From assembly GCA_905178155.1 (NCBI GenBank), contig CAJINV010000002.1, positions 11,874,729 to 11,938,728 on the forward strand: DNA of 64,000 nucleotides. Direction: 5' to 3'. The stretch comes from Amoebophrya sp. A120. Its lineage: Eukaryota; Protista; Dinoflagellata. Below, piece after piece: positions 3,001-64,000 of the stretch (its first letter is position 1; every line of letters starts with the position of its first letter). A program made the position numbers and the translations under genes. Under the pieces are notes generated by a model. That model had not been told where the DNA came from. It worked only from the letters and a program-made list of their open reading frames with translations, and made no database searches.

Positions 3001-6000
3001 GGGCTTTCCGCAAAACCAACACCATATGATGATGGCGCAAAACAACATGCACGGCATCGCCAACGGTGCTCAGCAAAATCAAGTCGGAATGCAGCAGCTG
3101 CCCGTTGCTTCCCAAGATCTCACCCAAGGCACGGAAGCACTCTACCAAGCAATGCGCATTCGCTTTGACGAGCTCAAGATACCCGGGGAGCTGATGATGA
3201 AAACAGTATTTCAAAATTTCCATACACTTTCTCGCCCTTTGTTGTACATGCACTTAGACATCATCTTCCAGGCTCGCAGCGTACTATCGAATCAAAATCT
3301 GGATGAAGAGACAGTGCAAAGTCTGCTTGCTTTATATAGTGTGCAAAACCATAATATCCGCAACAAAATCATAGGCGGAATATTGTATGCACCTCGTAGT
3401 CACCAACGAGATTGACGTGGAGGTGCAGCAGGTGCTAGCGAACGCTCCCGACAACAACATAGTGCAAGTGCGCGGACAGATGATGCGTAGTGCACAACAT
3501 CGTGGGGCGCAGCTTTTGGCCGCCTGGGCCGTGCGCGAGGATTTGTTCTTTGACGTAAAGAACCCTCCGACACTTACCGACCTCCAACAGACTATCATGG
3601 ATTGGTATAGCCGCGGCCAATGGCAGCAAGCGGATGGTACGTGGGGACGCAGGACCTTTAACGAAATCATCGCTGCACCTATGCACACGTACTTACCATT
3701 TTTCCCAATGATTATTTCTGACTAATTCTCAACTGATTTTTGCTCGCGGCGATCCGGATTGTTGCCGGCATGCTTGAGATGTCAAACTGAAATCTACTTT
3801 AACTTTTACAAAAACCCTTCTAGGGTAGTTGCCATGTTGAAGATGAGTCAGCTTAGTACTTAGAGGCTGTGCAACAATTGGACCCCCTTTCGCCAAGGCG
3901 AAAGGGGGGGGGGGTAGGTTGGTCCAATTCCGGAGGACGGGGGCTGGCACCCCGACGCAAGGGCGGCGGGGGCTCCCGTCGGTCTCGCCCCACAGACAAC
4001 AATCGAACGCCCGGCGGCTCTTCTTCGTGTGCCGCCTTCGCAGGTGGCGGCTGTTCGGTTGGTCGGCAGTAGGCCCACAGGCGTACGCAACACGGCCGAA
4101 ACCATTTGCCTGCTATCTATGGGCGAGTCCAGAACCGGGCGCGCCGTAGCATGTGCGTCGGGGCGGGCAGCCCTAGGAGGGCGGGCGCCCGCGGTGTTTT
4201 TCTTCACAGACATTCCGAGCAGCAAGGTGCATCGGGTCGATTGCGGGCGCCCAATGTCATGACCCCGGGCTCCCCGTGCTGCTTGGGGGGGGGTTTGACA
4301 AGTCGGTGGGCACATGGGGTCGGCCCGAAGTTTTTTTGCCCCGTGTTGTGAGGCGCAGGCGGAGGGGGTGGGGAGGCATCCATGCGCGCGCTGTCAGGAC
4401 CGGCGAGCACAGACGGAGGCATGCAGTGTGATGCAAATGTAGTCCGAACGGGCGCGCGCAGCGCGCCCCGCAAAATTTGCCACATTAGCACTACGCGCCC
4501 GCCACCACAAATAAAACGAACAGAACAAACCTGCTCGGTTTATCGGCAGCGGGCGCGCGCAGCGGGCCCCGCAAAATTTGCCACATTAGCATCACGCGCC
4601 CGCCACCACAAATAAAACGAACAGAACAAACCTGCTCGGTTTATCGGCTGCGGGCGCGCGCAACGCGCCCCGCAAAATTTGCCACATTAGCATTACGCGC
4701 CCGCAACCACAAATAAAACGAACAGAACAAACCTGCTCGGTTTATCGGCAGCGGGCGCGCGCGGCACGCCCCGCAAAAATTTCCACATTACCAGTACGCG
4801 CCCGCCGCCACAAATAAAACGAACAGAACAAACCTGCTCGGTTTATCGGGAGCAGGCGCGCGCAGCGCGGCCCGCAAAATTTTCCACATTACCATTACGC
4901 GCCCGCCACCACAAATAAAACAAACAGAACAAACCTGCTCGGTTTATCGGGAGCAGGCGCGCGCAGCGCGAATTTTTTTGAATTCCGGCAGCGCGAGCAC
5001 TGATCGCAGCTCAAGGCCTGCTCGCAGCGGGCACGCGCACCGCGCCCCGCAATTTTTTTCACTGCGCACAGCTCCCGGCGAAAGGGGGGGGGGAGGGGGG
5101 AGGTTGGTCTCCAGCGGGCCGCTACCCCCCCTTTCGCCATGGCGAAAGGGGGTCCAATTGTTGCACAGCCTCTTACATGTCTTTACGCTAAAAAATAGGA
5201 CTGGTGACGTGGCACCCGTGCCGTCACCCAGCCCGCCCACTTCGATTCCGGTCCGCGATCTGACAGAGGAGTTTCAGACGCAGCTGCATGGCACGGTATT
5301 GTGAAATTTTTGTTTTTTCATGTTGCGGTTTCATCAAAAGTTGTATGAGATTGTCGTAAGTGTCGTGTTGTAACTCTTGGAGTATCGCCTTTTGATCATG
5401 GGTTGTGAGTTGCTGGTGTAATTTAGTGCTGCTCAGCTCGAAAAAGTACTCTGTAGAAGTAGGAGCTCTCCTGGTTTTCGCAGATCTTCGCCCGATTTCA
5501 TCACGTTCTCTCGCTTGGGGTTTTTCGAAAACTTCACACGCGAGGAACTTGCGCCTGCGCAAACGATGGAAAAAAAGATCGATCCTCCACGCATTCTATT
5601 TACTCGTACAACCCGAAAGGACACTTCTCGCTCTTTCGCGAAGACGCAACGAAAGCCAGTTTGTATGTGTCTAATACTACGCACCTACACACCAGGTGGA
5701 GGGAATGCTGCAATACAATGCGCAACACATGGAGCATGCGCGCAAGGCGTTGGATGCTCTGATGACAGACCAGCTGGAGTGGGTTAAGGTGTTTAAGAAC
5801 GAGCAGGTGCTTCAGACGCTGTTCAGATCCAATCATCACGTTTTTAGCACGTGGCACCCCCACATCAACGGCCTTGTGAACCACATCAACGCCGTTTGGC
5901 ACACGAATCCCAACTTTGACTTCGTGGCGAATCTGGGTTCCCCGCACCACAAATTGCCAGACATGCCGGGGCTGAGCAGTCCCCTGGACCAGGCCACGAT

Positions 6001-9860: not shown

Positions 9861-12489
9861 AGAAAGGAGCAGGCACAAGGCGGACTACAGTTCCCGGGCT
9901 GACGATCAATTTCGACAGTTAGAAGCTGTGCTGCTTTCCCCTGTTCTTTCCGGTTCTAGTCGTTCGCGAGGATAGTAAGGATCCGCTCACTCCGACTCCC
10001 CGCGCCATTGCTACCGCCGCACGATCTCCAACAACGCGATCTCCTGATGTGATTGCAAAATGCGCGACTTCATCTCCCTCGTCCCATCCCTGTAAAAAAT
10101 TACAATTCACAAGAACGACACCCGCGTGCGACCCCGGAGCAGTCTACTAACTTAGCTGTTTTTATCGAATAAGATTGGAGCAGGCCAGCATCAATCTTCT
10201 AGTTAGGAAAAGCAATCGCAATCACCAAGTAGTCAACGTAAATACAAAAGTGACACCAGTTGTCAAAAGATGAAACTCAGTAAATGATAAACTCGACCAT
10301 TGCCAGTAAGTGTCTTGCGGTGGGGGTTCGTCTAAAGTAGCACCACACAAGAAGACCCTTGTTGGCAAGCGCAAACGTCGGGCAAAGAAGTTTTTCTCGT
10401 TTCCATCACAAGCAACCCTGGCGTTGAGCGATCGAAATTCAAGATAAAGTTGCTGCGTTTGATTTTTTTTTGAAGTTGAGGAATTTTTTTAAAAAAGGAG
10501 TTTGACCAGAAAAACGCAGGTCAAGCATCGCGGCAGGGAACAAAGAAAGTGTCGTCCTCTACAACTGGCATTGTTGTAGCTTCCATAATACCTTTAGGCC
10601 ATTATCAGGATAGCCGTGAGAACCGATTCAGCTTGTCCTGTGCGCACGCTTATTTTACAGATTAGCGTGAGTGTGGGAACCGAAGGATGAATGTGATAAG
10701 TACTACTTGTCTAGTTTCCGAGAAGCATAAGTGGTGACGCATGAAGATGGTCACACAATCTCAAGGTCGCCGGTATCTGCATCTGAGACTATAACCGAAG
10801 GAAAAACTACAAGCAGTGCCGGCTTTTTTCAAGTACTGGCTAGAGAATACAGATTGAGAGTCAGCAATTACTGGTCGATAAGGCTGCTCCCGTATCCATT
10901 TACCAAGTTTGGTACTCTCCAACGACACGGATGAGGAGTGCCAGTAGATGGACGCGAAAACTTAAACTCGTCGAAAATTCTTGTGCTAGCAACACGCATC
11001 AACATTTCAAAAGAAAATTATAATCAGCAGAACTTGTTTATTTTGTCGTGAGGAAGCAGCTGCGCCTGCGCCCGCTGGGTTTTTGACTGGATACACATCA
11101 TTTTTATTTACTCTAGACTACGGCGCTTCTTCATGAATAGGACGTATGTACCCAACGAATTGAGTTTCTTTGAAATGATACAGGTCATCCCCCGTATTAT
11201 TACTAATTGGAATTGGAATCTGTCGCTTCTAAGTCTGTTACAGCTGTAGTTTCGAAGGGCAAGCATTTCTTGTGTCTTCGAGCGTTTCACCAAAAAGTTT
11301 ATACCACTCTCGTCCTCACTACTGTACGTAGTTTGTTTACAGCAACACATATGAGAATCAATGTATCTTTCACGCATTCGTACTTTCACTTTTCAATTGC
11401 TCCTGTTCCGGTTCGTATAGGAGGATTCTTGGAACTACAAGAGCACGCTTTTTCATCTTTTTTCGTCAATGTACCTACAAGCAGCACAAGACGGCTTATC
11501 TATCTAATATCTGAAATTAATTGTTGTAAGTTGCTGTAAGTTGTTGCTAACGCTCTCGCTCGCATTACCCTTCATGAATTATCTGTTCACCTACAGTACT
11601 CCACTACTCCTCCACCCGCATTGAATTTTGTTTTTTCGGGTCCAGCTTCTCCTCGGTACTCCGACTTCAGTTAGTCGCGCCGTTGCAAAGCTGGAATTCC
11701 GAAAAGCGCAGCGCCACTTCGATGGAACAAGTTATTTTTCGATGTGCCGGCTTCACTATCTTAATCTTTACGTCTGGATGTCCTTCCCCTTTGTCGATCT
11801 CAGCTGTCTCAACGTATCTACCGGTAGGAACGGGGATTGGCGATGAATTTGAGGCAACTTTTTATGAGCAGGGGACACAAAATCAAACTCAAAGTGTTCA
11901 GTGTCCCGTTCTGAGAGCTGTTTTTTTGTGTGCTAGATTCGGTCAGTTGTTTTGTCCGTGCTTGCGCGGAAGCATTTTTTTTTGTCGATGATTGGCACCG
12001 AGAGCGAAGCAGTTTTTTTGGTATCCATATATTCGATTTGGAGTTGGACGTCGAGATGAGCGTCAGTAATTTGAGGGAAGTCCCCATCCTTGCGGGCCCT
12101 CATACATTCAGCACTAAAATGAAATGCTTTGTTGCGATTGTACTTCAAATTCTTGCAGGCTTCTTGGGAGCTTTGTCTCACAAAGTCCTTGATGTAAAGA
12201 TTTCTTAATGTTGGACGAATTAAAAGTCAGTGTCAGACGAATCACAAGCACAACATCGAATGCATGCTAGTCGCACAGCAGTTGCGAACGGTCCAGAAGA
12301 GTTTGTGACCGTGTGATTGAATCGGCTGTACGACGTTGTGCCCCTCCTACACGAAAAATTACAGTATTTTGACAAGCAGAGAAAAGTCGCATTGCGGTTG
12401 ATCTTAATAGATTTCACTAGCTCATCAGTCCCCCCGTTTTTACTTTTGAAGATTTTCATCGTAAGCCGCATTACTGAAAACACCAAAAG

Positions 12490-15326
12490 ATGGCGGCGGT
12501 CGCAAGCACCGCCTCGGGCGGCGGGTTGAAAGTTTTCACCGCCGACGAGGTGGCCAAGCATAATACCTTTGGGGATCTGTGGTTGATCGTTGACAACAAG
12601 GTCTACGACGTGTCCAAATTTGCCAACGTCCACCCCGGTGGCAAGCATATCCTGCTCGACGTTCCGAACAACGATGCCACGGAATATTTCTACGCGTTCC
12701 ACGCAACGGACGTATTTTTCGACAAAATGTCTTTCATGATGCATATTAAGTTTCCCCCGATCATCTTCTTCAAAACGCCGAGGATTTTTTTTTTGGCTGG
12801 TATCGGTATGATCAGTGCTCCAGGTCTGCCCCGTCATTATGGTTTTTTCTTTTTTGAGCTGGTCTTTTTCCACCCAATTTCTCGTTTTCATTTTTCATAT
12901 GATGAAAATGCAGGTGCTTGACAAGTACCACAAAAAGTTGTGTATCGGCACTGTGGAGGGCAAGACCGAGCAAATCTATGAGCCGAAGCAGAAGGCCAAG
13001 GGCGGCAAGAAGCTGGATGTGGCCACCGCCCCGGCGGAGCAGCTGCTGAAGGAGCATCCGCTGCTGTGCCGCACACCCTTTGGCGAACCGGCAAGTATGA
13101 AGCGGTTCTACGCGAGCCCCTACCATAACGAGACGCACCTGCGATTTCGCCTCGGGTGCCGCGAGTTTTTCCACGAAATGCTACCGGAAGCGGAGGAGCT
13201 GGAAGAGAGTCAGGACTACATTCCCAACGAAATCTGGGAGGAGTTCGGAAAAACGGGCATGTTTGCTTGCTCCATCGGCGTCACCGCCATGCCGGCCGTG
13301 AAAAAACTGGGGTTGCCGCTCCCGGGAGGCATCAAGCCAGAGGAATTCGACTTCTTCCATGAGCAGATCCTCCATGAAGAAGCGGCAAGGATACTGCCAC
13401 CGAGGTAAGCAGTCAGGTTTGATACGTATATAGTACAAAACAATACGAATATTACTCTGGTGGGTCAACCTCTTATGCCCACGCCTCAACTTGATGACCC
13501 AGGATTTCTGCGAGTTGTGATGCTGTTCTCAGAAATAAACCAACGAAGCAAATTGTGATGAGCTAAAAACGTAGTTCAATTTCAATCAAAAATTTCAAAA
13601 TCCGATACAGCTTTCTGGATGGTATTTTTGCGGGTTTCAACATTGGTCTCCCCCCGATCATGAACTTCTATCACGGTCCCGACAAAATGGAGATGATTGC
13701 CAACATCCTGCTCGGCAAGAAAAAGGTTGCCCTCGCGATCACTGGTCCGGAGGCGGGTTCGGACGTGGCCAATCACCAGTGTATTGCGAAGTTTTCGGAA
13801 GACAAGAAGACCTTCACGGTGCGGGGCTTGAAGAAGTGGATCACCGGTGGCTGCCAGGCCGACTACTTTGTCACCGCGGTGCGTACGGGCAAGCCTGGCC
13901 TCAAAGGAATCAGCATGCTGTTGATCAAACGCGAGGACGGAAACGTGCTGACTAAGCAACTGTCAACCTCCTACGGGAAAACCGCAGCCACCGCACTGGT
14001 TCAGTTTGAGGACGCCAAGGTTCCGGTCGAGGGCCGTCTCATGGGCGTGAAGAAGGGAGACGAACTGAACAAGGGCTTCCAGTGCATCATGCTCAACTTC
14101 AACCACGAGCGGTGGATGATTTGGTAAGTATTCACTTCCACTCAGACTGTTTTTTTCTGACAATAAGTCAATCTTGACATGAACAGTAAAGTAAAGGATC
14201 ATGTTGAAATGTACTACGACGCTCAAGCATGAAATTTTTCTCGATTACATTCGAAAAGACCGATCGAGCAATGATCTTCCACAGCGCCAATGCTCTGGGC
14301 ATGCAACGCGTCGTAGTTTCGGATTGCCTCCAGTGGTTGACTATCAAATGTAAAAATGTCTGGGTCTGGAAGATTGCCAGGTTTGTCATGCATGTTTTGC
14401 ATGACCCCTGACGTCTGTGATGCATGCCCTAGCATCACAGATTTTGTGAGGGCTACCTGATGCCTATACCGCATGACAAATGCTCTTTCAGTGCAGCAAA
14501 ACTTGGACTCTCTTTCTTGCTGCTCATGCAATACAGATTTTTTTACAATCCAAAGCCAGCATGACAAACATGCATTCTTCCAGACCCAGACATTTTTACA
14601 TTTGATATTGACCCAGCGGAAGGCCTTCGGTCGACCGCTGTCGGACCAGCCGGTGCTGCGGTTCAAGTTTGGCCAGATGGTGGCTATCCTGAGTAAAAAC
14701 GTACCCACACCAGAGTTGTAATGCAGATTCGCAAAGACATGAAGACTTGTAATGCGCATCCCCATGAGAGCCATTTCCAATCGTGTTTTGGAATTTGTGA
14801 TGCTGTGAACAGGATGAGCAGCTGGATTTGTGATGCGGCTGCACTTGCTAACCTGCACTACACTGCAGAGTGCAACTTGTCATGCGTGACTCGCAAAACT
14901 CCTAGGTTTGTGTTGCAAAATCCTCATCCTGACTCTGGTGTGGGTGCGTTTTTACTCAGGATAGTGGCTGCTCTGGAGTCACTGCAGAGCTACATGGACC
15001 ACGTCACCTACCAGATGAAGGTGTACTACGACCGGGTGATGAGCGACCCGAAAACCTGGAAGACCCGGGATTACCTCGCGGGCGAGATCGGGCTGCTCAA
15101 GTACCAGACCACCCGCGTGAGCACCTTGCTCGCAGACAACGGGTGCCAGATTTTCGGCGGCCGGGCGGTCACCCGCACGGGCATGGGGAAGAAGATGGAG
15201 CGCTTCAACCGCATGTACAAAATCTCGTCCATCTACGGCGGCAGCGAGGAAATCATGGCCGACCTCGGGGTGCGACAAGCGCTGCGCGAGTGGACGCCCG
15301 AAGACAAACTGAAAGCCAAGCTGTAG
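12490..15326 (+). CDS. Cytochrome b5-domain / acyl-CoA dehydrogenase fusion with C-terminal PTS1-like AKL
   Basis: Exons 12490-12711, 12914-13404, 13611-14123, 14285-14341, 14613-14684, 14969-15326. b5 motif WLIVDNKVYDVSKFANVHPGG; ACAD motifs ALAITGPEAGSDV, RGLKKWITGG, NFNHERW, QRKAFGRPL, CQIFGGRAV, IYGGSEEIM. The last two introns are non-canonical. Confidence 0.92.
14342..14607. mobile_element. Introner-like non-canonical intron 1 (TIR element, 5-bp TSD TTGAC)
   Basis: 32-bp perfect TIR TATCAAATGTAAAAATGTCTGGGTCTGGAAGA; TTGAC at 14337-14341 and 14608-14612; removal restores QWLT|QRKAFG. Confidence 0.92.
14685..14963. mobile_element. Introner-like non-canonical intron 2 (TIR element, 5-bp TSD GTGGC)
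   Basis: TIR TATCCTGAGTAAAAACG(T/C)ACCCACACCAGAGT; GTGGC at 14680-14684 and 14964-14968; removal restores GQMVA|ALESLQ. Confidence 0.92.
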
Positions 15327-42672: not shown

Positions 42673-44520
42673 ATGGTGGTGCCCCTGCCGCCAATCTACA
42701 TCACCCCGGTGCCTTCCGAGTACGCACTAAAATGTCGTCCCTGGTTCACCGTTTTCGCGTTTGTCATGCTGGTCGAATCCATCCAGAAGATGTTTCTGGA
42801 TCTCGAGATTTTTCCGGGTTTCATATCAAAATGAAAAATCCCCCCTCCCCATATCAAAACGGAAATTTGTGATGCTCATTTGTGACCACAAATCAGCTTT
42901 GTATTGCAGAGAGGCACTGCGGCCAGATCCCCAGGCTAGGTAGGGGCGTATGGGTCTAGTAGTTCAGCATGGCAAACGGCCCCCCTTTAGGCCCAACAGC
43001 ATGACAAATCGCTTCCACAATGGGGCGGAAGCTTCTGGCCTTGTCTTCTTGCAAGACAGATGTGATTTGTGACCTCAAATCCGCAACGCAAATTTTTGGA
43101 AACATACCTTTTCAATATGGGGAGGGGGGATTTTTCCTCTCAATATTTCATGGTGGCGATCCTGGCTGGCGTGGGGTTCTACTGCCTGCGCGACAAGTCC
43201 GTCGACATGCACTGTCTCATGACTTGGGGTAAGTATGTACTTGGCAGGGCGAGATGCTTCATTCACATTTTTTGTCAAGCGCAAGCATGACGCTCTGAAG
43301 TTCGCTGTACGACCCCACAGATCTTACATAGAGACCATAATTTCACTCGGTAGAAGCAACTAAAAGGGAACAGGTCGGTGGTGAATCGAATGCATTATGT
43401 TGAAGAAATGGATTTTCAAACTGAATCTTAATGCAGGCATGGTGTGCATGATCAATGGGGTTCTTACGGTGGTGTTGCTGATTGATCGAGTCGTGCGTCC
43501 CATGTCCGAGCCGCTCTTCGTCACGAGCAACGACCAACTGCGGGACAAAGGCGTTTGGGTCCACAACACGAAGTCCCTGATCCGCATCGCAAGTCCCGTA
43601 GCGATGTTGTGCGTCGCCGGGCTCACCTATCGGGTAAGTACCTACTGATCATGCTGATGTTTTGTACACCACGTCAACGGACGATCTTTCTTTATTTATT
43701 GCCTCTAAAGGTGCTAAAGGTGACGAATTTTAATGACATGTTTCTTACTTTATGAGGTTTACAACGAGGTGATGGATACCCTCGACGATATGGCGGCAGA
43801 CCAGCAGGTGCGAAATAATATGAAAGTGAAAAGAGTTGTGGGCGCGCAGCGACAGAAGCGTCTTCATGATGTGTTTATATCAGAAATATGTGAAAAATTC
43901 TTCATCTACATCTTGCTGTACGTCTGAGATCACAGGTTTTATCCGCAGCTGCGGATCAAGGTTTGATCCGCAGCAACATGCTCGCTTGTTTAAGTAAGCA
44001 TCACAGGCGGAAGATCACGTATGCGAAATTCAGCACTGCTATGTGACGAAGACGATGGTCATGTTGCTGCGCATCTACGGTTTTTCTTTTCCAAAACGAT
44101 TGCGATACAAGAGCAGCGAGAGCAATACGTCGCGGGGACAAAATATTCTTCGAATCTCGATCGGCTTTTTGTTGTTATATAATTCTAACGACGCATTTCC
44201 ATTTGCATTGCTTTGATTTTGATGGGCGAAGGGACTTTTCTGAGAACAATTTGAATTCAGTAATGAGAGCTACAAAGAACTACAATTTGCAGATGGTAGC
44301 TAAGTTGTGTCGCTAAATAGACGAGTGCCGGTTCCCACAACAGCAGAAGTAGAGCGAGATTTGTGGAAGTTTTTAAGCGAGCTATACAGCAGAGCAGACG
44401 CAGCGGCTGAACCAACGCCAGAGCGCAGGTGCGCCACAAAATACGAATGCCAGCAATACCGGCACGACGTTCACACCCTTTGGGGGAGTTGGTAATCAAT
44501 TGGGCGGAGAACTGGACTAA
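42673..44520 (+). CDS. Multi-pass membrane protein with C-terminal SHP-box-like motif (paralog 2)
   Basis: Exons 42673-42823, 43151-43228, 43437-43633, 43757-43807, an uncertain middle exon, ~44378-44520; MVVPLPPIYITPVPSEYALK, GVGFYCLRDKSVDMHCLMTWG, FTPFGGVGNQLGG match paralog 1. Confidence 0.78.
42824..43145. mobile_element. Introner-like non-canonical intron 3 (imperfect TIR, 5-bp TSD TTTCA)
   Basis: Left TATCAAAATGAAAAATCCCCCCTCCCCATATCAAAA vs right reverse complement TATTGAGAGGAAAAATCCCCCCTCCCCATATTGAAA; TTTCA at 42819-42823 and 43146-43150; removal gives PGF|MVAILAGVGFY, colinear with paralog 1. Confidence 0.9.
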
Positions 44521-48167: not shown

Positions 48168-48433
48168 CGATTCTACTTTTTTGCATTCCCATCATAAGCT
48201 GCTTCGTTCGTTTGTCAGCCACAGGCAAATCGTTTTCGTCGTGGTTGCAGACGACCATGGGGGTGTTGCCACAGCTGCTGGCGCTCTCGAAAATGAAATG
48301 CTCCAAAAGCACGAGTTTGCTGTGGTCCTTGACTCAAAAATTTTATTGCGATAGCAACCACGCCCTGGAACAAGGAAGGCAAGAAGTGGTTTCTGGACGA
48401 GTGGCTCCGCCGCTAGCAGATAGAGGGTATGCG

Positions 48434-48668
48434 TTGCAAACGTGTCAGTCTGGGTTTGGAAGAGTTTCGATGGTGATGCTGCCTCAGATTTCAAAGGGAA
48501 AGAAAAGAGAATCCGTATTGCAGAGCAGTTTTTTCTACACGGAGAGCGCATTTGTCATGCAGGAGAGGCATTAAAAACCCGATGCTAGAGCATGCATTGA
48601 CAGACCAGAGTGCCATGGTGCATGGCAAGCTTTGCAGAGTCCCAGACCCAGACATTTTGCATTTGATG
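48434..48668 (-). mobile_element. Diverged copy of introner 1 family, opposite orientation
   Basis: Colinear blocks shared with the reverse complement of 14342-14607: GTCTGGGTTTGGAAGA, AATCCGTATTGCAGAGCAG, GCATTTGTCATGC, GATGCTAGAGCATGCAT, CCAGACCCAGACATTTTGCATTTGAT. Confidence 0.75.
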
Positions 48669-51765: not shown

Positions 51766-52077
51766 AAAAGTGAGAAATCAGAAAAGTGAGAAATCACTGA
51801 TTTCTCACTTCTGAAAAGTTTCCATTTTGAAAAAGTAAGAAGTCACTGACTTCTCACTTCTGAAAAGTTTTCATTTGGGAAAAGTGAGAAGTCACTGACT
51901 TCTCACTCTGTTTCTCGAACACCTTCGAGAAACGGAGTGAGAAATCAGTGATTTCTCACTTGTGAAAAATTCTCACTCCGGAGTCGGAGTCGCGTTCACT
52001 CTTTCCAGAGTGAGAATTTTTCAAAAGTGAGAAATCAGTGATTTCTCACTACTTTTCTCGAAGGTACTTCGAGCCCC
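51766..52077. repeat. Array of 25-bp palindromes next to the assembly gap
   Basis: AGTGAGAA(A/G)TCA(C/G)TGA(T/C)TTCTCACT at 51785, 51834, 51883, 51936, 52026. Confidence 0.9.
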
Positions 52078-52672
52078 NNNNNNNNNNNNNNNNNNNNNNN
52101 NNNNNNNNNNNNNNNNNNNNNNNNNNNNNNNNNNNNNNNNNNNNNNNNNNNNNNNNNNNNNNNNNNNNNNNNNNNNNNNNNNNNNNNNNNNNNNNNNNNN
52201 NNNNNNNNNNNNNNNNNNNNNNNNNNNNNNNNNNNNNNNNNNNNNNNNNNNNNNNNNNNNNNNNNNNNNNNNNNNNNNNNNNNNNNNNNNNNNNNNNNNN
52301 NNNNNNNNNNNNNNNNNNNNNNNNNNNNNNNNNNNNNNNNNNNNNNNNNNNNNNNNNNNNNNNNNNNNNNNNNNNNNNNNNNNNNNNNNNNNNNNNNNNN
52401 NNNNNNNNNNNNNNNNNNNNNNNNNNNNNNNNNNNNNNNNNNNNNNNNNNNNNNNNNNNNNNNNNNNNNNNNNNNNNNNNNNNNNNNNNNNNNNNNNNNN
52501 NNNNNNNNNNNNNNNNNNNNNNNNNNNNNNNNNNNNNNNNNNNNNNNNNNNNNNNNNNNNNNNNNNNNNNNNNNNNNNNNNNNNNNNNNNNNNNNNNNNN
52601 NNNNNNNNNNNNNNNNNNNNNNNNNNNNNNNNNNNNNNNNNNNNNNNNNNNNNNNNNNNNNNNNNNNNNNNN
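52078..52672. other. Assembly gap
   Basis: Run of N. Confidence 1.
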
Positions 52673-55600
52673 AGATTTGTTTTGTGCCGCCGATCTTCGT
52701 GCTGCTGCAGATGTTTGCTAAGCTTCAAAAGAACTACACCAGCGCGCCAAACCGATCGACTTGGCATGAATTGCGTCCCCCGAGGGCGTTCGGAGAAGTT
52801 TTCCGGCGAAAAGGGGGGGGCTTTTGCGAGTCATGTATCTTTCCAATGTAGCTCCTCGGAGCATAGTCTTCTCGCCCATTCCAGCCCAGCTCTTCGGAGC
52901 CTAGATTTTAGTTTCTCTGGTCTGCAAAAGGGTCTAGCTCTCTCTGTTTCAGCTGCAAACTTCTGACAAAGGCAAATCTGTTTTACGGCCGACGTGGTGG
53001 CTAGGATTGCCTGACTGCTGCGTTGAGCCCAGCCTGCGTGACGGCGTGCAGTCTATAAATTCGGTTTACTTAGCGCCCCTGTTGCAGCAGGAGATAACAC
53101 TGAGAGTATACATCGACCGGCGGTAGTTAGACGGGGATGACTAGAATAGGCCCGAAGGGCTTAGCTTATCACATCCCCCGCACTGCTGTTGCATCAGCAG
53201 GAGCGGCGACATGCGTGACGTTCACGGGGCCCACTGAGGTGGCTAGAAAAAATTTGCATTGCGGCCCGCGGGTCGCTTAACTGCCATGGCCGCCACAGCT
53301 GCGTGATCGTGCAACTGCGTGGCCGTGTAGTACATGCCGCGTAGCGCTGGCGCCCGCCTCCCTGTAACTTTAGTGGTAGCGCACAAGACCGCTGCGCGGC
53401 TCGGCGGCATTAACCGGCCCTGAGTTCCTGCGTGTATGCACCTCGGCCACAGGAACCAGAGGTGGTAGGTTTGTTTTTACTAAAAAGAAAAACTAGTGCT
53501 CAAAAACAAAAGAAAGCAAAGCTACACTCTTGAAAAAAGTCAACGGAGATTCAGCTCCCAGTGCTGTGCATCGCATGCCGCCCCCAGGGTGGTGTGTGTG
53601 TACACGCCCGCGGCGCTACTAGATGGATCCAAACTTTATTTTCAACAAAAGGGCCCAAGGACAGACGTCAATCAGGCCAAGGTGAGATGCGTGAAGAAGT
53701 AATAGCTTTGCATTGTTAGAAAAGAAGCTAGTATGTAGGTGATTGATAACTTAGACAGGGTTTAGGGTTCGACGTGTGCCCCCGTCTGGTGCGTGAAGTT
53801 AGTACGTTGACCGGTATAAGACTCTCGCCGAAAATTGGATCGAATCGATACACCCGTCGTCCGATTCGATCCAAGAAGCTGGGCAAAAGTTGAAACAGAA
53901 ACGAGAAAAAGCAGGAGCCCGCGCTTCAGATAGATCCCAGGCTCTGGCTGCCCTTATGGGCCCACTTCGTTCCGCAACGCCGGGAATTGGATCGAATCGA
54001 TACCCCCGGCGTCCGATTCGATCCAAAAATCTGGCCAAAAGTTGAAACAGAAACGAGAAAAAGCAGGAGCCGGCGCCGCAGAGAGATCCCAGGCTCTGAC
54101 TGCCCTTATGGGCCCACTTCCACAACGCCGAAAATTGGATCGAATCGATACCCGCGTCGTCCGATTCGATCCAAAATAAAATCTGGGCAAAAGTTGAAAC
54201 ATAAACAAGAAAAAGCAGGAGCCGGCGCTGCAGATGGATTGGCTCCAGGCTCTGGCTGCCGTTATGGGCCCACTTCGTTCCACAACGCCGGAAATTGGAT
54301 CGAATCGATACCCCCGTCGTCCGATTCGATCCGAAAATCTGGGCAAAAGTTGAAACAGAAACGAGAAAAAGCAGGAGCCCGCGCTTCAGATAGATTCCAG
54401 GCTCTGGCTGCCCTTATGGGCCCAGTTCCACAACGCCGGAAATTGGATCGAATCGATACCCCCGTCGTCCGATTCGATCCGAAAATCTGGGCAAAAGTTG
54501 AAACAGAAACGAGAAAAAGCAGGAGCCCGCGCTTCAGATAGATTCCAGGCTCTGGCTGCCCTTATGGGCCCACTTCCGCAACGCCGGAAATTGGATCGAA
54601 TCGATACCCCCGGCGTCCGATTCGATCCAAAAATCTGGGCAAAAGTTGAAACAGAAACGCGAAAAAGCAGGAGCCGGCGCTGCAGATAGATTCCAGGCTC
54701 TGGCTGCCGTTATGGGCCCACTTCCACAACGCCGCAAATTGGATCGAATCGATACCCCCGTCGTCCGATTCGATCCAAAAATCTGGGCAAAAGTTGAAAC
54801 AGAAACGCGAAAAAGCAGGAGCCGGCGCTGCAGATAGATTCCAGGCTCTGGCTGCCGTTATGGGCCCACTTCCACAACGCCGAAAATTGGATCGAATCGA
54901 TACCCCCGTCGTCCGATTCGATCCAAAAATCTGGGCAAAAGTTGAAACATAAACAAGAAAAAGCAGGAGCCGGCGCTTCAGATAGATTCCAGGCTCTGAC
55001 TGCCGTTATGGGCCCACTTCCACAACGCCGGAAATTGGATCGAATCGATACCCCCGGCGTCCGATTCGATCCGAAAATCTGGGCAAAAGTTGAAACAGAA
55101 ACGAGAAAAAGCAGGAGCCGGCGCTTCAGATAGATTCCAGGCTCTGGCTGCCGTTATGGGCCCACTTCCACAACGCCGGAAATTGGATCGAATCGATACC
55201 CCCGTCGTCCGATTCGATCCGAAAATCTGGGCAAAAGTTGAAACAGAAACGAGAAAAAGCAGGAGCCGGCGCTTCAGATAGATTCCAGGCTCTGGCTGCC
55301 GTTATGGGCCCACTTCCACAACGCCGGAAATTGGATCGAATCGATACCCCCGTCGTCCGATTCGATCCGAAAATCTGGGCAAAAGTTGAAACAGAAACGA
55401 GAAAAAGCAGGAGCCCGCGCTTCAGATAGATTCCAGGCTCTGGCTGCCCTTATGGGCCCACTTCCACAACGCCGGAAATTGGATCGAATCGATACCCCCG
55501 GCGTCCGATTCGATCCAAAAATCTGGGCAAAAGTTGAAACAGAAACGCGAAAAAGCAGGAGCCGGCGCTGCAGATAGATTCCAGGCTCTGGCTGCCGTTA

Positions 55601-58496
55601 TGGGCCCACTTCCACAACGCCGGAAATTGGATCGAATCGATACCCCCGTCGTCCGATTCGATCCGAAAATCTGGGCAAAAGTTGAAACAGAAACGAGAAA
55701 AAGCAGGAGCCCGCGCTTCAGATAGATTCCAGGCTCTGGCTGCCCTTATGGGCCCACTTCCGCAACGCCGGAAATTGGATCGAATCGATACCCCCGGCGT
55801 CCGATTCGATCCAAAAATCTGGGCAAAAGTTGAAACAGAAACGCGAAAAAGCAGGAGCCGGCGCTGCAGATAGATTCCAGGCTCTGGCTGCCGTTATGGG
55901 CCCACTTCCACAACGCCGGAAATTGGATCGAATCGATACCCCCGGCGTCCGATTCGATCCAAAAATCTGGGCAAAAGTTGAAACAGAAACGCGAAAAAGC
56001 AGGAGCCGGCGCTGCAGATAGATTCCAGGCTCTGGCTGCCGTTATGGGCCCACTTCCACAACGCCGCAAATTGGATCGAATCGATACCCCCGTCGTCCGA
56101 TTCGATCCAAAAATCTGGGCAAAAGTTGAAACAGAAACGAGAAAAAGCAGGAGCCGGCGCTTCAGATAGATTCCAGGCTCTGGCTGCCGTTATGGGCCCA
56201 CTTCCACAACGCCGGAAATTGGATCGAATCGATACCCCCGTCGTCCGATTCGATCCGAAAATCTGGGCAAAAGTTGAAACAGAAACGAGAAAAAGCAGGA
56301 GCCGGCGCTTCAGATAGATTCCAGGCTCTGGCTGCCGTTATGGGCCCACTTCCACAACGCCGGAAATTGGATCGAATCGATACCCCCGTCGTCCGATTCG
56401 ATCCGAAAATCTGGGCAAAAGTTGAAACAGAAACGAGAAAAAGCAGGAGCCCGCGCTTCAGATAGATTCCAGGCTCTGGCTGCCCTTATGGGCCCACTTC
56501 CACAACGCCGGAAATTGGATCGAATCGATACCCCCGGCGTCCGATTCGATCCAAAAATCTGGGCAAAAGTTGAAACAGAAACGCGAAAAAGCAGGAGCCG
56601 GCGCTGCAGATAGATTCCAGGCTCTGGCTGCCGTTATGGGCCCACTTCCACAACGCCGGAAATTGGATCGAATCGATACCCCCGTCGTCCGATTCGATCC
56701 GAAAATCTGGGCAAAAGTTGAAACAGAAACGAGAAAAAGCAGGAGCCCGCGCTTCAGATAGATTCCAGGCTCTGGCTGCCCTTATGGGCCCACTTCCGCA
56801 ACGCCGGAAATTGGATCGAATCGATACCCCCGGCGTCCGATTCGATCCAAAAATCTGGGCAAAAGTTGAAACAGAAACGCGAAAAAGCAGGAGCCGGCGC
56901 TGCAGATAGATTCCAGGCTCTGACTGCCGTTATGGGCCCACTTCCACAACGCCGAAAATTGGATCGAATCGATACCCCCGTCGTCCGATTCGATCCAAAA
57001 ATCTGGGCCAAAGTTGAAACATAAACAAGAAAAAGCAGGGGCCGGCGCTTCAGATAGATTCCAGGCCCTGACTGCCGTTATGGGCCCACTTTCTCCCACA
57101 ACGCCGAAAATTGAAGCGAATCGATGCCCCCGGCGTCCGATTCGATCCAAAAATCTGGGCAAAAGTTGAAACAGAAACGCGAAAAAGCAGGAGCCGGCGC
57201 TGCAGATAGATTCCAGGCTCTGACTGCCGTTATGGGCCCACTTCCACAACGCCGAAAATTGGATCGAATCGATACCCCCGTCGTCCGATTCGATCCAAAA
57301 ATCTGGGCCAAAGTTGAAACATAAACAAGAAAAAGCAGGGGCCGGCGCTTCAGATAGATTCCAGGCCCTGACTGCCGTTATGGGCCCACTTTCTCCCACA
57401 ACGCCGAAAATTGAAGCGAATCGATGCCCCCGGCGTCCGATTCGATCCAAAAATCTGGGCAAAAGTTGAAACAGAAACGCGAAAAAGCAGGAGCCGGCGC
57501 TGCAGATAGATTCCAGGCTCTGACTGCCGTTATGGGCCCACTTCCACAACGCCGAAAATTGGATCGAATCGATACCCCCGTCGTCCGATTCGATCCAAAA
57601 ATCTGGGCCAAAGTTGAAACATAAACAAGAAAAAGCAGGGGCCGGCGCTTCAGATAGATTCCAGGCCCTGACTGCCGTTATGGGCCCACTTTCTCCCACA
57701 ACGCCGAAAATTGAAGCGAATCGATGCCCCCGTCGTCCGATTCGATCCAAAAATCTGGGCAAAAGTTGAAACAGAAACGCGAAAAAGCAGGAGCCGGCGC
57801 TGCAGATAGATTCCAGGCTCTGACTGCCGTTATGGGCCCACTTCCACAACGCCGAAAATTGGATCGAATCGATACCCCCGTCGTCCGATTCGATCCAAAA
57901 ATCTGGGCCAAAGTTGAAACATAAACAAGAAAAAGCAGGGGCCGGCGCTTCAGATAGATTCCAGGCCCTGACTGCCGTTATGGGCCCACTTTCTCCCACA
58001 ACGCCGAAAATTGAAGCGAATCGATGCCCCCGTCGTCCGATTCGATCCAAAAATCTGGGCAAAAGTTGAAACAGAAACGCGAAAAAGCAGGAGCCGGCGC
58101 TGCAGATAGATTCCAGGCTCTGGCTGCCGTTATGGGCCCACTTCGCAACGCCGGAAATTGAATCGAATCGATACCCCCGGCGTCCCATTCGATCCAAAAA
58201 TCTGGGCAAAAGTTGAAACACAAACAAGAAAAAGCAGGAGCCGGCGCTGCAGATAGTTTCCAGGCTCTGACTGCCGTTATGGGCCCACTTCCACAACGCC
58301 GAAAATTGGATCGAATCGATACCCCCGTCGTCCGATTCGCTCCAAAAATCCGGGCAAAAGTTGGAACACAAACAAGAAAAAGCAGGAGCCCGCGCTTCAG
58401 ATAGATTCCAGGCTCTGGCTGCCCTTATGGGCCCACTTCCGCAACGCCGGAAATTGGATCGAATCGATACCCCCGGCGTCCGATTCGATCCAGAAA

Positions 58497-59841
58497 TCAG
58501 GTGGAGGACAGTGGGGCCAGTTCGTGGGCTAAAAACTGGCTAAATTTTTCGGGATTTCCCCGAGGCCCCAAGGCCCGGGCACCTCTCTGGCTTGGCCCGT
58601 GTGCCGCCGCCCAGGTTCGTGTCTTATCGCTCCCCCCTGTCTGGTTCGTCTCCGCCTTGTCGGTCCCATGGGGTTTGTTCGTGTCTGTGGGCCACTGGTA
58701 CAATGCGGCCGCGGTGCCTGCTCCTACCTTGTGTTTTGTGTTTGGCCGCGCGCCAAGTTTTAAAATTTAAAAATTGGCCCGGTTTTCCATAGAAATGTGG
58801 AGACGGCCAATTTCGACATGTCTTCCGACGCTGGTTTTCCGGATATTTTGCACCACGCAAAATATCCGGCAGCGTGGTCATGTGTGTTGCAGGGGAAGGC
58901 ATTATCTCAGGCACAACAGGCTCGAGATGGTGTCTGTCACTATCTCGGCCAAGCCCTGGGGGTTGCCTCTCCTTATAATTGTTCTGCATCGCGCTCCGCG
59001 CTGTGTTGTGTTTGTCTTTCTGATGACGTCGACCTTCGTCGCAGGATTCTTGTTCTAAATGTGGCTTTGGAAATATAGAAGTCCAGAGGACTTCCATGTT
59101 TCCAAAGCCGCGGGATTCACACTTTTTCATCTTCGAAGTCGGCGGCTAAATCTGCAAGTTTGTGACTTCCTTCCCGAAATCACTGTACTCGCGAATTTAG
59201 CCGTTCGAGGCGAAGATGAAAGGAGTGTGAATCCCGCAAAGTTTAGAACAAGAATTAGAAGGGCAATTTAGCGCATGACTTAGCCATGCGATTTAGAACA
59301 AAAAATAGAATAGGATTTAGAATAGGATTTAGCCGGCCGATTTAGCACACAATTTAGCGGGCCAAATTAGAAAGGATTTTCCGCGCTTTTTGCTAAACTG
59401 CCAATTTAGCAAAAAGCGCGGAAGGCTAAATCGTTTGGGGTGGTGGAAATGTGGTGGGGAAATATAATAACCATTCGCGCATGGGATGGTGGCCCACTGA
59501 TTTCCGGGGGCCAAACACATTTCCGCCGGCGCCGGCTTCCGTTTGGGTCTGTCCTTCTTGGGTTCAAGGGCTTCCGCCTTCGGGCATTTCGTTTCCATGT
59601 CTATCCCCCATGCGCCATGGGGTGTCGTCTCGTTCTGTGCGCGCTCCGTCCGGGCCGCCGCAAAATAGCCGTCGCAAACTCCGCTGGGGTTTTGTTTTCT
59701 TTTGCCCACGCCGCGCGGGCTTACTCTTTTCCTTCGGCGGCAACGCCACCACGGTCGCCTTTGTTTGCCCGGACTTTTTAAAAATCCCGAAAAAATTAGC
59801 CAAAATTTAGCGGGCGAAGTCGCCCCACGCCCTCCATCTGA
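58497..59841. mobile_element. Non-autonomous TIR element A inserted in the satellite (TCA...TGA, 6-bp TSD)
   Basis: Imperfect ~60-bp TIR TCAG(G/A)TGGAGG..GTGGGGC..TTCG..GCTAAA..TGGCTAA.TTTTTCGGGATTT; flanks CAGAAA (58491-58496) / CAAAAA (59842-59847); removal restores the satellite unit. Confidence 0.8.
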
Positions 59842-62444
59842 CAAAAATCTGGGCAAAAGTTGAAACAGAAACGCGAAAAAGCAGGAGCCGGCGCTGCAGA
59901 TAGATTCCAGGCTCTGACTGCCGTTATGGGCCCACTTCCACAACGCCGAAAATTGGATCGAATCGATACCCCCGTCGTCCGATTCGATCCAAAAATCTGG
60001 GCAAAAGTTGAAACACAAACAAGAAAAAGCAGGGGCCGGCGCTTCAGATAGATTCCAGGCTCTGACTGCCGTTATGGGCCCACTTCCATCCCCAACGCCG
60101 AAAAAAAATTGGATCGAATCGATACCCCCGTCGTCCGATTCGATCCGAAAATCTGGGCAAAAGCTGAAACAGAAACGAGAAAAAGCAGGAGCCCGCGCTT
60201 CAGATAGATTCCAGGCTCTGGCTGCCCTTATGGGCCCACTTCCGCAACGCCGGAAATTGGATCGAATCGATACCCCCGGCGTCCGATTCGATCCAAAAAT
60301 CTGGGCAAAAGCTGAAACAGAAACGAGAAAAAGCAGGAGCCCGCGCTTCAGATAGATTCCAGGCTCTGGCTGCCCTTATGGGCCCACTTCCGCAACGCCG
60401 GAAATTGGATCGAATCGATATCCCCGGCGTCCGATTCGATCCAAAAATCTGGGCAAAAGTTGAAACAGAAACGCGAAAAAGCAGGAGCCGGCGCCGCAGA
60501 TAGATTCCAGGCTCTGACTGCTGTTATGGGCCCACTTCCACAACGCCGAAAATTGGATCGAGTGAATCGATACCCCCGGCGTCCGATTCGATCCAAAAAT
60601 CTGGGCAAAAGTTGAAACACAAACAAGAAAAAGCAGGAGCCGGCGCTTCAGATAGAGTCCAGGCTCTGACTGCCGTTATGGGCCCACTTCCACAACCAAC
60701 GCCGAAAATTGGATCGAATCGATACCCCCGGCGTCCGATTCGATCCAAAAATCTGGGCAAAAGTTGAAACACAAACAAGAAAAAGCAGGAGCCGGCGCTT
60801 CAGATAGAGTCCAGGCTCTGACTGCCGTTATGGGCCCACTTCCACAACCAACGCCGAAAATTGGATCGAATCGATACCCCCGGCGTCCGATTCGATCCGA
60901 AAATCTGGGCAAAAGTTGAAACATAAACAAGAAAAAGCAGGAGCCGGCGCTTCAGATAGATTCCAAACTCTGACTGCCGTTATGGGCCCACTTCCACAAC
61001 GCCGGAAATTGGATCGAGTCGCTACCCCCGTCGTCCGATTCGGTCCAAAAATCTGGGCAAAAGTTGAAACACAAACAAGAAAAAGCAGGAGCCGGCGCTG
61101 CAGATAGATTCCAGGCTCTGACTGCCGTTATGGGCCCACTTCCACAACGCCGAAAATTGGATCGAATCGATACCCCCGGCGTCCGATTCGCTCCAAAAAT
61201 CTGGGCAAAAGTTGGAACACAAACAAGAAAAAGCAGGAGCCCGCGCTTCAGATAGCTTCCAGGCTCTGGCTGCCGTTATGGGCCCCCTTCCACAACGCCG
61301 GAAATTGGGCCGAGTCTATCGATACCCCCGTCGTCCGATTCGATCCGAAAATCTGGGCAGAAGTTGAAACAGAAACGAGAAAAAGCAGGAGCCCGCGCTT
61401 CAGATAGATTCCAGGCTCTGGCTGCCGTTATGGGCCCACTTCCACAACGCCGGAAATTGGATCGAATCGATACCCCCGGCGTCCGATTCGATCCAAAAAT
61501 CTGGGCAAAAGTTGAAACAGAAACGCGAAAAAGCAGGAGCCGGCGCTGCAGATAGATTCCAGGCTCTGACTGCCGTTATGGGCCCACTTCCGCAACGCCG
61601 GGAATTGGATCGAATCGATACCCCCGTCGTCCGATTCGATCCAAAAATCTGGGCAGGAGTTGAAACATAAACAAGAAAAAGCATGAGCCGGCACTTCAGA
61701 TAGCTTCCAGGCTCTGACTGCCGTTATGGGCCCACTTCCACAACGCCGGAAATTGAAGCGAATCGATACCCCCGCCGTCCGATTCGATCCGAAAATCTGG
61801 GCAAAAGTTGAAACAGAAACGCGAAAAAGCAGGAGCCCGCGCCTCAGATAGATTCCAGGCTCTGGCTGCCCTTATGGGCCCACTTCCGCAACGCCGGAAA
61901 CTGGATCGAATCGATATCCCCGGTGTCCGATTCGATCCAAAAATCTGGGCAAAAGTTGAAACAGAAACGCGAAAAAGCAGGAGCCGGCGCTGCAGATAGA
62001 TTCCAGGCTCTGACTGCCGTTATGGGCCCTGGATCGAATCGATATCCCCGGCGTCCGATTCGATCCAAAAATCTGGGCAAAAGTTGAAACAGAAACGCGA
62101 AAAAGCAGGAGCCGGCGCTGCAGATAGATTCCAGGCTCTGACTGCCGTTATGGGCCCTGGATCGAATCGATATCCCCGGCGTCCGATTCGATCCAAAAAT
62201 CTGGGCAAAAGTTGAAACAGAAACGCGAAAAAGCAGGAGCCGGCGCCGCAGATAGATTCCAGGCTCTGAGCTGACTGCCGTTATGGGCCCACTTCCACAG
62301 CGCCGAAAATTAGATCGAATCGATACCCCCGTTGTCCGATTCGATCCAAAAATCTGGGCAAAAGTTGAAACATAAACAAGAAAAAGCAGGAGCCGGCGCT
62401 TCAGATAGCTTCCAGGCTCTGACTGCCGTTATGGGCCCACTTCC

Positions 62445-63748
62445 TCATGCGGAGACACCCCGGGCGGATTTCTGTTCTAAAATTCCGCTAATTTTTCCGG
62501 TTTTTCAAAAATTCCGGGCGCCCTTTCCACCAGGCCGGGGAGGCCGCCGCCGGGGGCGCCCGCTTGCTGTACTCCCCCACCGCGTGCCCAGCGTCGCCAT
62601 GGTGTTTCGGTCAATGGGCTTAGCGGTGGGGCGCCCGTTTTTGTCTCTTGGGATTCGGCGTGGCGGGTTTTAAAATTTAAAAATTTGGGCAGGTTTCTTG
62701 GGTAATTGCCGCCGCGCAATTTCAAGGCGAGCGCAGGGGGGAATAGGTGGTGGCGGTTGGGGCAAGTGCGATTTTGTTTATGTTTGTGGTAGGAGGGTCG
62801 ACGTGGGGTTGTGAATTCCCTGGAGATGCGAAGAGGCGCAGCTTGTGCGTGCCTCTTCGCATCTTCGCATTTTGTTCTACAGCTCGAGACAATATCATAT
62901 TCGTATGTCGCGGAGCTGGAGATGATGTTCGTGAGAGTGAACATCATCTCCAGCAGCGCCGAAAACAAATCTCGAGTTGTCAGGCATTGGATGTTCGCGT
63001 GAAGCGAAACCGGAAGTCTTCCGGTTTCGCTTCCGCTTTTGGTGTCCCGAAATCTTCTACTCCGACTTCTAAAATCGCCAAATGGCGATTTTATGTGGGA
63101 TTTTGCGCTACCTGCAATTTTAGAGAAGTATTATAACTTCCGAAATTGCAGTGCGCGCAACGGAATTAAAGGATTTTTAGAGACGAAATTAAAGGGCGGA
63201 GTTAAAGGATTTTTTAAAGGCCTTTTTAGAGGCCATTTTAGAGGCGGCTTTTCGAGACGGGTTTTAGAGGCCCGTTTTAGAGGCCCACTTTCGAGGCCGG
63301 CTTTAGAGACCGGCTTTAGAGGCCGGTTTTAGAGGCCCGCTTTAGAGGCCGCTTTTAGAGGCCAAAATTAGAGGCGCACTTTAGAGGCCGAAATTAGAAG
63401 TCCACTTCGTAAGCGGCTTCTGCAGCGGGCTTGTAGTTTCGGCCTGTCTTTCACATGGGATCGTCGCGACTAAGTAGTCATGGCAGCGATCCGGTGTGCA
63501 GGCTTTCTGGGTGATCTCTTGTTCTTTCTTCTCTTCTTCGCGATCGTCTTCCGGTCCAGGGGTGTTCTTTCCTCATCGCGGAATTTCGTCTGTGCGCCGC
63601 GTCGCCTATTTCCTTTTGTGACTTCGGCGCCGCCCTCTTCATTCCCATGGGCGTGCCACCAGGGTTTTTGGGTCCTTGCTTTTTTTGTAAAACCGGAAAA
63701 ATTAGAAGAATATTAGAGGCCGAGGCCGCCCGGGCGTTTTCCGCATGA
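62445..63748. mobile_element. Non-autonomous TIR element B inserted in the satellite (TCA...TGA, 6-bp TSD)
   Basis: Imperfect ~65-bp TIR TCATGCGGA.A...CCCGGGCGG...TCTAA.ATTC..CTAATTTTTCCGGTTTT; perfect ACTTCC at 62439-62444 and 63749-63754; removal restores GGGCCCACTTCCACAACG. Confidence 0.85.
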
Positions 63749-64000
63749 ACTTCCACAACGCCGAAAATTCGATCGAATCGCTACCCCCTTCGTCCGATTC
63801 GATCCAAAAATCTGGGCAAAAGTTGAAACAGAAACGAGAAAAAGCAGGAGCCCGCGCTTCAGATAGATTCCAGGCTCTGGCTGCCCTTATGGACCCACTT
63901 CCGCAACGCCGGAAATTGGATCGAATCGATACCCCCGGCGTCCGATTCGATCCAAAAATCTGGGCAAAAGTTGAAACAGAAACGCGAAAAAGCAGGAGCC

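Follow-up and report, generated by a model that had tools for sequence, protein, structure and literature searches.

Amoebophrya carries tens of thousands of non-canonical introns, whose spread and splicing are presented as open questions in the text of Farhat 2021 (PMC7789003). That text describes A120 introners with TAT-N7-AAA ends, 3-5-nt direct repeats and hairpins, reports having found no transposase in A120, and argues against a general transposase-mediated mobilisation. Within the text and table of Gozashti 2025 (PMC12130899), most of the terminal inverted repeat (TIR) families of A120 are classed as 'Unknown'; one family, fam38, is entered in the table as 'Ginger, 5-bp TSD, TA/TA termini' and is described in the main text as lacking the termini and duplications expected for Ginger. 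As far as the respective accounts go, transposases have been shown to bind the subterminal repeats of Hermes (PMC10368747) and of Emigrant, the latter by Lemi1 (PMC1636448).

The elements described here were found in a 64-kb window (the whole stretch of Amoebophrya sp. A120 DNA that was analysed, 64,000 nucleotides) and in loci of a related strain. They share with the A120 introners, as these are presented in Farhat 2021, TAT-N7-A-run ends, 3-5-nt repeats, hairpins, non-GT-AG junctions and a multiplicity of families. Their cluster lengths (110, 150, 211, 236, 262, 282 and 307-322 bp) match the A120 family lengths given in the published accounts (107, 149, 209, 234, 252-261, 278 and 305-322 bp; PMC7789003, PMC12130899). 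As reported for Hermes and Emigrant, short conserved words are repeated inside their TIRs, facing either way and distributed unevenly between the two ends. The described Hermes duplications are 8 bp long and its word is AAG(T/C) (PMC10368747), whereas the duplications here are 5 bp, which does not qualify the elements as hAT; the Emigrant repeats are described as copies of half of its own TIR (PMC1636448). Unlike in either system, a single word here extends across families with differing TIRs, and the elements appear to double as introns. The TA..TA termini are also those reported for IS3EU/GingerRoot, whose duplications are usually 6 bp rather than 5 bp (PMC10045372). The elements themselves, with their TAT, A-run and direct repeats, have been described before, as has binding to subterminal repeats in general; the internal code was not encountered in the literature searched. 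The text and supplementary text of PMC7789003 and PMC12130899 make no mention of a shared internal motif, its phase or its 31-33-bp spacing, and the literature searched on Amoebophrya introners or on the motif strings yielded no description of it, figure logos aside.

Elements of the window and their host gene

A scan of the window for TAT-N6-8-AAA ends combined with a direct repeat returned exactly three intact units (E1, E2 and E3), with TAT-N7-A5 as their common end pattern. The features that the preliminary description had assigned to all three are indeed present in each of them: TAT...ATA ends, an A5 run at positions 11-15, a perfect 5-bp direct repeat and a length in the range of 266-322 bp. 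E1 (14342..14607, no strand assigned) is a 266-bp element with a ~30-bp perfect TIR and a hairpin z of -14.0, bounded by the target duplication TTGAC (left copy at 14337..14341 on the plus strand, right copy at 14608-14612). Its inward-reading plus-strand motif cores at 14384 and 14416 (spanning 14384..14423) lie 43 bp and 75 bp inward of the left end with a spacing of 32 bp, and its minus-strand cores at 14559, 14528, 14471 and 14432 (spanning 14432..14566) lie 42, 73, 130 and 169 bp from the right end, the one at 14528 being the variant TGTATTGC. Two pairs of these sites mirror each other (at 43/42 and 75/73 bp from opposite ends) and so do not count as independent.

A short exon (14613..14684, plus strand) separates E1 from E2 and corresponds to positions 39-60 of the Acyl-CoA_dh_1 profile (E 0.0042, below the curated cut-off). 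E2 (14685..14963, no strand assigned) is a 279-bp TAT...ATA element of another family than E1, with a hairpin z of -9.3 and the duplication GTGGC, whose left copy (14680-14684) forms the end of that exon and whose right copy occupies 14964-14968. Its six motif cores, at 14717, 14748, 14796, 14829, 14878 and 14909 (spanning 14717..14916), are all on the plus strand and form pairs 31, 33 and 31 bp apart. E3 (42824..43145, no strand assigned), a 322-bp TAT...ATA element of a third family with the duplication TTTCA, has cores within 42868..43006, namely two on the plus strand (42868 and 42900, 45 and 77 bp from the left end and 32 bp apart) and one on the minus strand (42999). From the reading of the flanking frame we infer that E3 is an intron, and no frame-keeping GT/GC-AG pair is present near its ends. 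The copy at 48.4 kb cited in the preliminary description proved to be a relative of the E1 family with a motif core, as claimed, but one reduced to a decayed remnant (E4, 48525..48667, no strand assigned) that falls outside the intact-element scan: it aligns to the E1 family at ~70%, has one core at 48553 and a degenerate left end near 48430, and was not recovered by the TIR-plus-duplication scan of the window.

Apart from the motif, the three intact elements are as dissimilar as had been stated, with no blastn match linking E1, E2 and E3 and pairwise z values of 1.6, 0.4 and -1.2 once the motif is randomised. The family clusters that hold them have 122, 36 and 25 members, respectively. Being short, non-coding and of high copy number, with a TIR and a target duplication, they are of the MITE type; the summed contig depth over E1 is 513,699 against ~45 in its flanks, a value that is not a copy number.

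E1 and E2 lie within a gene coding for a cytochrome b5 - acyl-CoA dehydrogenase (12478..15326, plus strand; Pfam PF00173, PF02771, PF02770 and PF00441), which also has three GT-AG introns on the same strand (12712-12913, 13405-13610 and 14124-14284). A transcript-like contig of 3,226 nt from run X3, taken to be RNA by a guess, aligns to the window at 12158-12711 and again from 14964 on; 1,128 nt of the contig lie between the aligned parts, so that 1,124 genomic bases are missing from it. The three GT-AG introns together with E1 and E2, each element counted with one duplication, amount to 1,124 nt, an exact match (1124/1124). Since the junctions themselves are not among the aligned rows, the removal of E1 and E2 is seen as a length match only. 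Another X3 contig skips GT-AG introns in a neighbouring gene. The host frame after removal is stop-free over 574 aa, as compared to 432-473 aa if an element or one duplication stays, and no equivalent register of E1 or E2 offers GT/GC-AG ends. The raw-read run X21, which covers only 4 of 30 bins, contained no junction. Judged by lengths and reading frame, E1 and E2 probably leave the transcript as introns that lack GT-AG ends.

Other repeats of the window and loci were recorded alongside. A 1,310-bp TIR element with a TTA duplication occupies window positions 3863-5172, and similar elements with 3-bp duplications, starting with GAG, were seen in the loci (L018:11414-12261 and L068:14695-15321). 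We take these elements to be PIF/Harbinger-like; no Pfam match was obtained for them in the three frames tested, and the four TIR elements with 3-bp duplications carry 0-1 motif sites each. Positions 53800-64000 of the window are a satellite of ~148-bp units, interrupted by two ~1.3-kb stretches bounded by inverted repeats (58511-59828 and 62445-63748), and nested inverted repeats without the motif are located at 51780-52077, before an N gap (52078-52672).

Density and placement of the internal motif

All 11 motif strings listed in the preliminary description sit at the coordinates given there. The strict form TTTGTSATGC accounts for eight of these sites and not for the other three, the true consensus being wider; similarly, the reported occurrence in both orientations applies to E1 and E3 but not to E2, whose six broad sites are all on the plus strand. 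The strict form occurs nine times in the window against 0.47 expected, a number reached in 0 of 100 shuffles, with eight of the nine sites within elements and the ninth, at 42760, in the exon directly before E3. As the motif had been derived from these very elements, this enrichment test is circular, and independent DNA was therefore sought.

A metagenome scan returned at least 140 loci matching the E1 end; 81 long ones (65 contigs, 589,435 non-redundant bp) were used, and 59 loci shorter than 1 kb were left out. Exons in this DNA diverge by a few percent from organism A, which marks it as another strain. An element caller that is blind to the motif and requires TAT at the ends identified 339 TAT...ATA elements (335 of them not longer than 600 bp), with perfect duplications in 299 of the 339 and an A frequency of 0.73-0.95 at end positions 11-15 of the short ones. 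A scan blind to TAT gave TAT with a 5-bp duplication as the top class (211 of 617 matches). Clustering by whole sequence divided the 335 short elements together with E1-E3 into 28 clusters.

The density of YTGTSATGC is 9.15 per kb in called elements, 7.99 per kb in partial copies and 0.21 per kb elsewhere (763 sites within the 83,402 bp of element sequence, as against 97 in the other DNA, which totals 458,243 bp), and that of the strict motif is 3.97, 3.29 and 0.107 per kb, respectively. Pattern-predicted GT-AG introns of the loci (242 in number) contain YTGTSATGC at 0.18 per kb. Over the 589 kb the motif is, therefore, commoner in the elements than in canonical introns or other DNA, and this enrichment supports the proposal of the preliminary description that one cis-code unites otherwise dissimilar TIR introns. 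The eight GT-AG introns of the window (1,526 bp) have two core matches, which is above background and a tiny count. Single TGTSATGC cores, above background, were noted at window positions 13516, 20095 and 21482, inside three GT-AG introns; they may be left over from old elements.

Outside the E1 TIR cluster, which had been used for fetching the loci, the strict motif is present in 129 of 209 elements (203 sites vs. 0.9 in dinucleotide shuffles) and the broad motif in 207 of 209. A de novo count of 8-mers ranks TGTCATGC first, in 22 of the 28 clusters, followed by TGTGATGC, TGTAATGC, TCTCATGC and TGTATTGC. The working consensus is approximately YYTGTVATGC, with the broad form found in 333 of the 335 short elements and 27 of the 28 clusters. 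Unmasked DNA of the loci contains 32 further motif clusters (e.g., L007:6765-7001, L027:502-653 and L052:7559-7823), several of which mark degenerate TAT...ATA elements missed by the caller, so that the motif serves to detect old copies.

TAT, the A-run at positions 11-15, the 5-bp duplication and the motif are common to all families, which differ from one another at TIR positions 16-30 and in the interior. At arm positions 16-30 there are 155 cases in which the two arms share a variant, compared to 86 expected, a surplus consistent with selection for pairing but also with arm homogenisation or subfamily structure. The first inward-reading motif site starts 33-34, 41-45 or 53-56 bp from the element end. 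For 40 cluster-end sites the phase concentration is R = 0.62 at a period of 10.5 (best period 9.75), with p 0.0003 against uniform placement over a short range and across clusters that are not all independent; the phase rests on two main peaks within 31-62 bp, single-copy clusters included, and the first of these peaks coincides with the end of the ~30-bp stem. The motif often repeats 31-33 bp further in, as in E1, E2 and E3 alike. Same-orientation pairs at 31-34 bp are present in 19 of the 28 clusters, with a pair statistic of 18.7 compared to a mean of 3.1 and a maximum of 11 in 1000 permutations.

Constraint, strand and competing explanations

Overall, the elements are probably short non-autonomous TIR transposons in exons, likely removed from RNA together with one 5-bp duplication, and the word is likely a double-stranded DNA site bound by one mobilising protein, a reading in keeping with the subterminal repeats of Hermes and Emigrant/Lemi1, which bind transposase. 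Of the two mechanisms offered in the preliminary description, DNA binding by a mobiliser agrees better with the data than recognition of the RNA strand by a splicing factor. The motif spacing would reflect a protein gripping one face of the helix, as subterminal repeats are gripped by the DNA-binding domains of transposases, and with such binding at a shared word a single transposase (or accessory factor) would move all families. Copies losing the motif would stop spreading, which would explain its conservation. Splicing would use the paired ends (hairpin) rather than the motif, and would thus tolerate insertion in either orientation.

Substitution trees were built for the nine largest clusters, which comprise 298 copies. 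On terminal branches the invariant motif positions evolve at 0.44 of the interior rate and on internal ones at 0.20, and the degenerate fourth position changes at approximately 1.0-1.2 of that rate. A test with single-site decoys was noisy (11% and 19% of decoys were as low as the motif) and revealed that internal-branch ratios are biased low, and a pooled decoy correction was therefore applied: the pooled ratios for 44 recurrent sites are 0.40 (terminal) and 0.13 (internal), as compared to 1.00 and 0.58 for 1,035 overlapping decoy 8-mers. Motif positions that are slower than decoys, combined with a free degenerate position, point to sequence-specific selection. The constraint is 0.43 in copies with coding flanks (n=194) vs. 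0.44 in copies with noncoding-like flanks (n=35, a class defined by a weak codon score). The terminal-branch value of 0.40 may reflect unsampled lineage history or selection on resident copies, the latter of which would be in line with a host function, for instance splicing.

Such a function is the basis of an alternative that we consider unlikely, in which a host DNA-binding protein reads the motif, marks the element on the chromosome and recruits a co-transcriptional machinery for non-GT-AG removal. The persistence of constraint on terminal branches (0.40, with little rise from short, 0.43, to long ones, 0.48) is in its favour, as is the failure, reported in Farhat 2021 (PMC7789003), to find U1 snRNA in A120; a GT/GC-AG reading in any register is possible in only 11 of 194 exon copies, and the independence of orientation described below fits a host mark equally well. 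Nevertheless, equal constraint in copies with noncoding-like flanks argues against it, and so does the decoy-corrected constraint, which is stronger on internal (0.13/0.58) than on terminal branches (0.40/1.00).

In a second alternative, a dedicated splicing factor would recognise the motif as an RNA signal on the pre-mRNA. A codon model assigned the host strand of 216 of the 335 copies (209 of the 216 confident calls match the contig majority; ~117 of 3,579 training codons were taken in a wrong frame). In the 219 exon-embedded copies that result when E1-E3 are included, strict sites are split evenly between the sense (110) and antisense (105) strands. None of the clusters is biased in orientation (smallest p 0.13), and in 22 copies the sense strand is devoid of broad sites. 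In the E2 family the sites are distributed 4.33 vs. 0.14 per strand, yet insertions go both ways (9 vs. 13), with 8 of the 21 exon-embedded copies in the loci lacking a sense-strand site. Most elements do have at least one sense copy in either orientation, and a weak excess on the sense strand is seen for the broad and the core motif (flip p 0.08-0.10 across the two; 0.08 with a sum of +61 for the broad one), as well as in subterminal sites present only at the 5' or only at the 3' end (51 vs. 32, nominal p 0.048). A case against this explanation comes from locus L063, where a transcript-like contig of 2,177 nt is without four elements, each with five more bases (missing lengths of 319 = 314+5, 214 = 209+5 and 483 = 267+5+206+5), among them an E2-family copy with no sense site (L063:10690-11003); the comparison crosses strains, and the DNA of organism A visibly enters an element only at 11465-11673. 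Taken together, we regard a signal read on RNA as quite improbable.

A third possibility, that the motif has no function and was inherited from a common ancestor or arose as a side effect of internal duplication, draws on the end grammar common to all families, which therefore probably had one ancestor, on the residual similarity retained in 9 of 136 cluster pairs, and on the 31-33-bp repeats, which could come from tandem duplication. However, position-specific constraint with a free fourth position largely refutes it in the substitution test, and 127 of the 136 pairs (among the 17 largest clusters) share nothing else detectable once the motif is randomised, leaving this possibility with very little probability. 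Maintenance of the motif for base pairing of RNA or single-stranded DNA inside the hairpin would suit the opposite E1 copies, which pair in an extended stem, but is extremely improbable as a general rule, which is contradicted by the nearly one-stranded sites of the E2 family that cannot pair together, and pairing does not need the same sequence in every family.

The putative mobilising protein and a possible two-layer code

The search for the protein that, in the favoured reading, would bind the motif covered both the window and the loci. No transposase or integrase domain was detected by Pfam in 49 frames of the window or in the 122 longest of 213 non-overlapping ORFs of the loci, and no autonomous element was detected in the 589 kb of loci, a small part of the ~115-Mb genome. 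PDB searches returned 0 matches and 1 match at E 0.86. The pattern of ends plus phased motif had 0 matches in viral contigs and 0 in prokaryote genomes; two E1 TIR matches in viral contigs were rejected as chance, both being inside a phage gene. A 6,197-bp 'long element' in L046 was likewise discarded, as the ends paired in it belong to two distinct short elements, and none of the other three calls longer than 600 bp has a stop-free frame of more than 96 aa. By its TA..TA ends, as in IS3EU/GingerRoot, the enzyme might be an integrase-type DDE transposase, which is a guess only.

Two long E1-family copies (L048:10001-10972 and L032:3862-4492) have inserts of ~700 bp (L048) and ~350 bp (L032), which lie between motif-containing duplications of 19 and 13 bp, respectively. 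The L048 insert ends in an A-rich tail and sits in the gene for the largest subunit of RNA polymerase II. These two cases (n = 2) suggest a retroelement landing at the motif. The TTTGT half of the motif resembles HMG-box sites, and the whole word a Sox-Oct composite element; this resemblance is likely a coincidence, and an HMG-box host factor is a lead.

A word in phase and common to nearly all families provides a bait with which to look for the mobilising protein, and a means both of recognising decayed copies and, by mutation, of telling a mobility code from a splicing code. Tentatively, and with considerable doubt, the observations may be extended to a code of two layers, in which one protein, possibly encoded by the host given that no transposase is reported for A120, would read TAT, the A-run and the phased motif on DNA and move every family irrespective of its TIR sequence, and the paired family-specific arms would enable non-GT-AG excision. 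If this two-layer code is true, the tens of thousands of introns would be the cargo of one undescribed mobilisation system.
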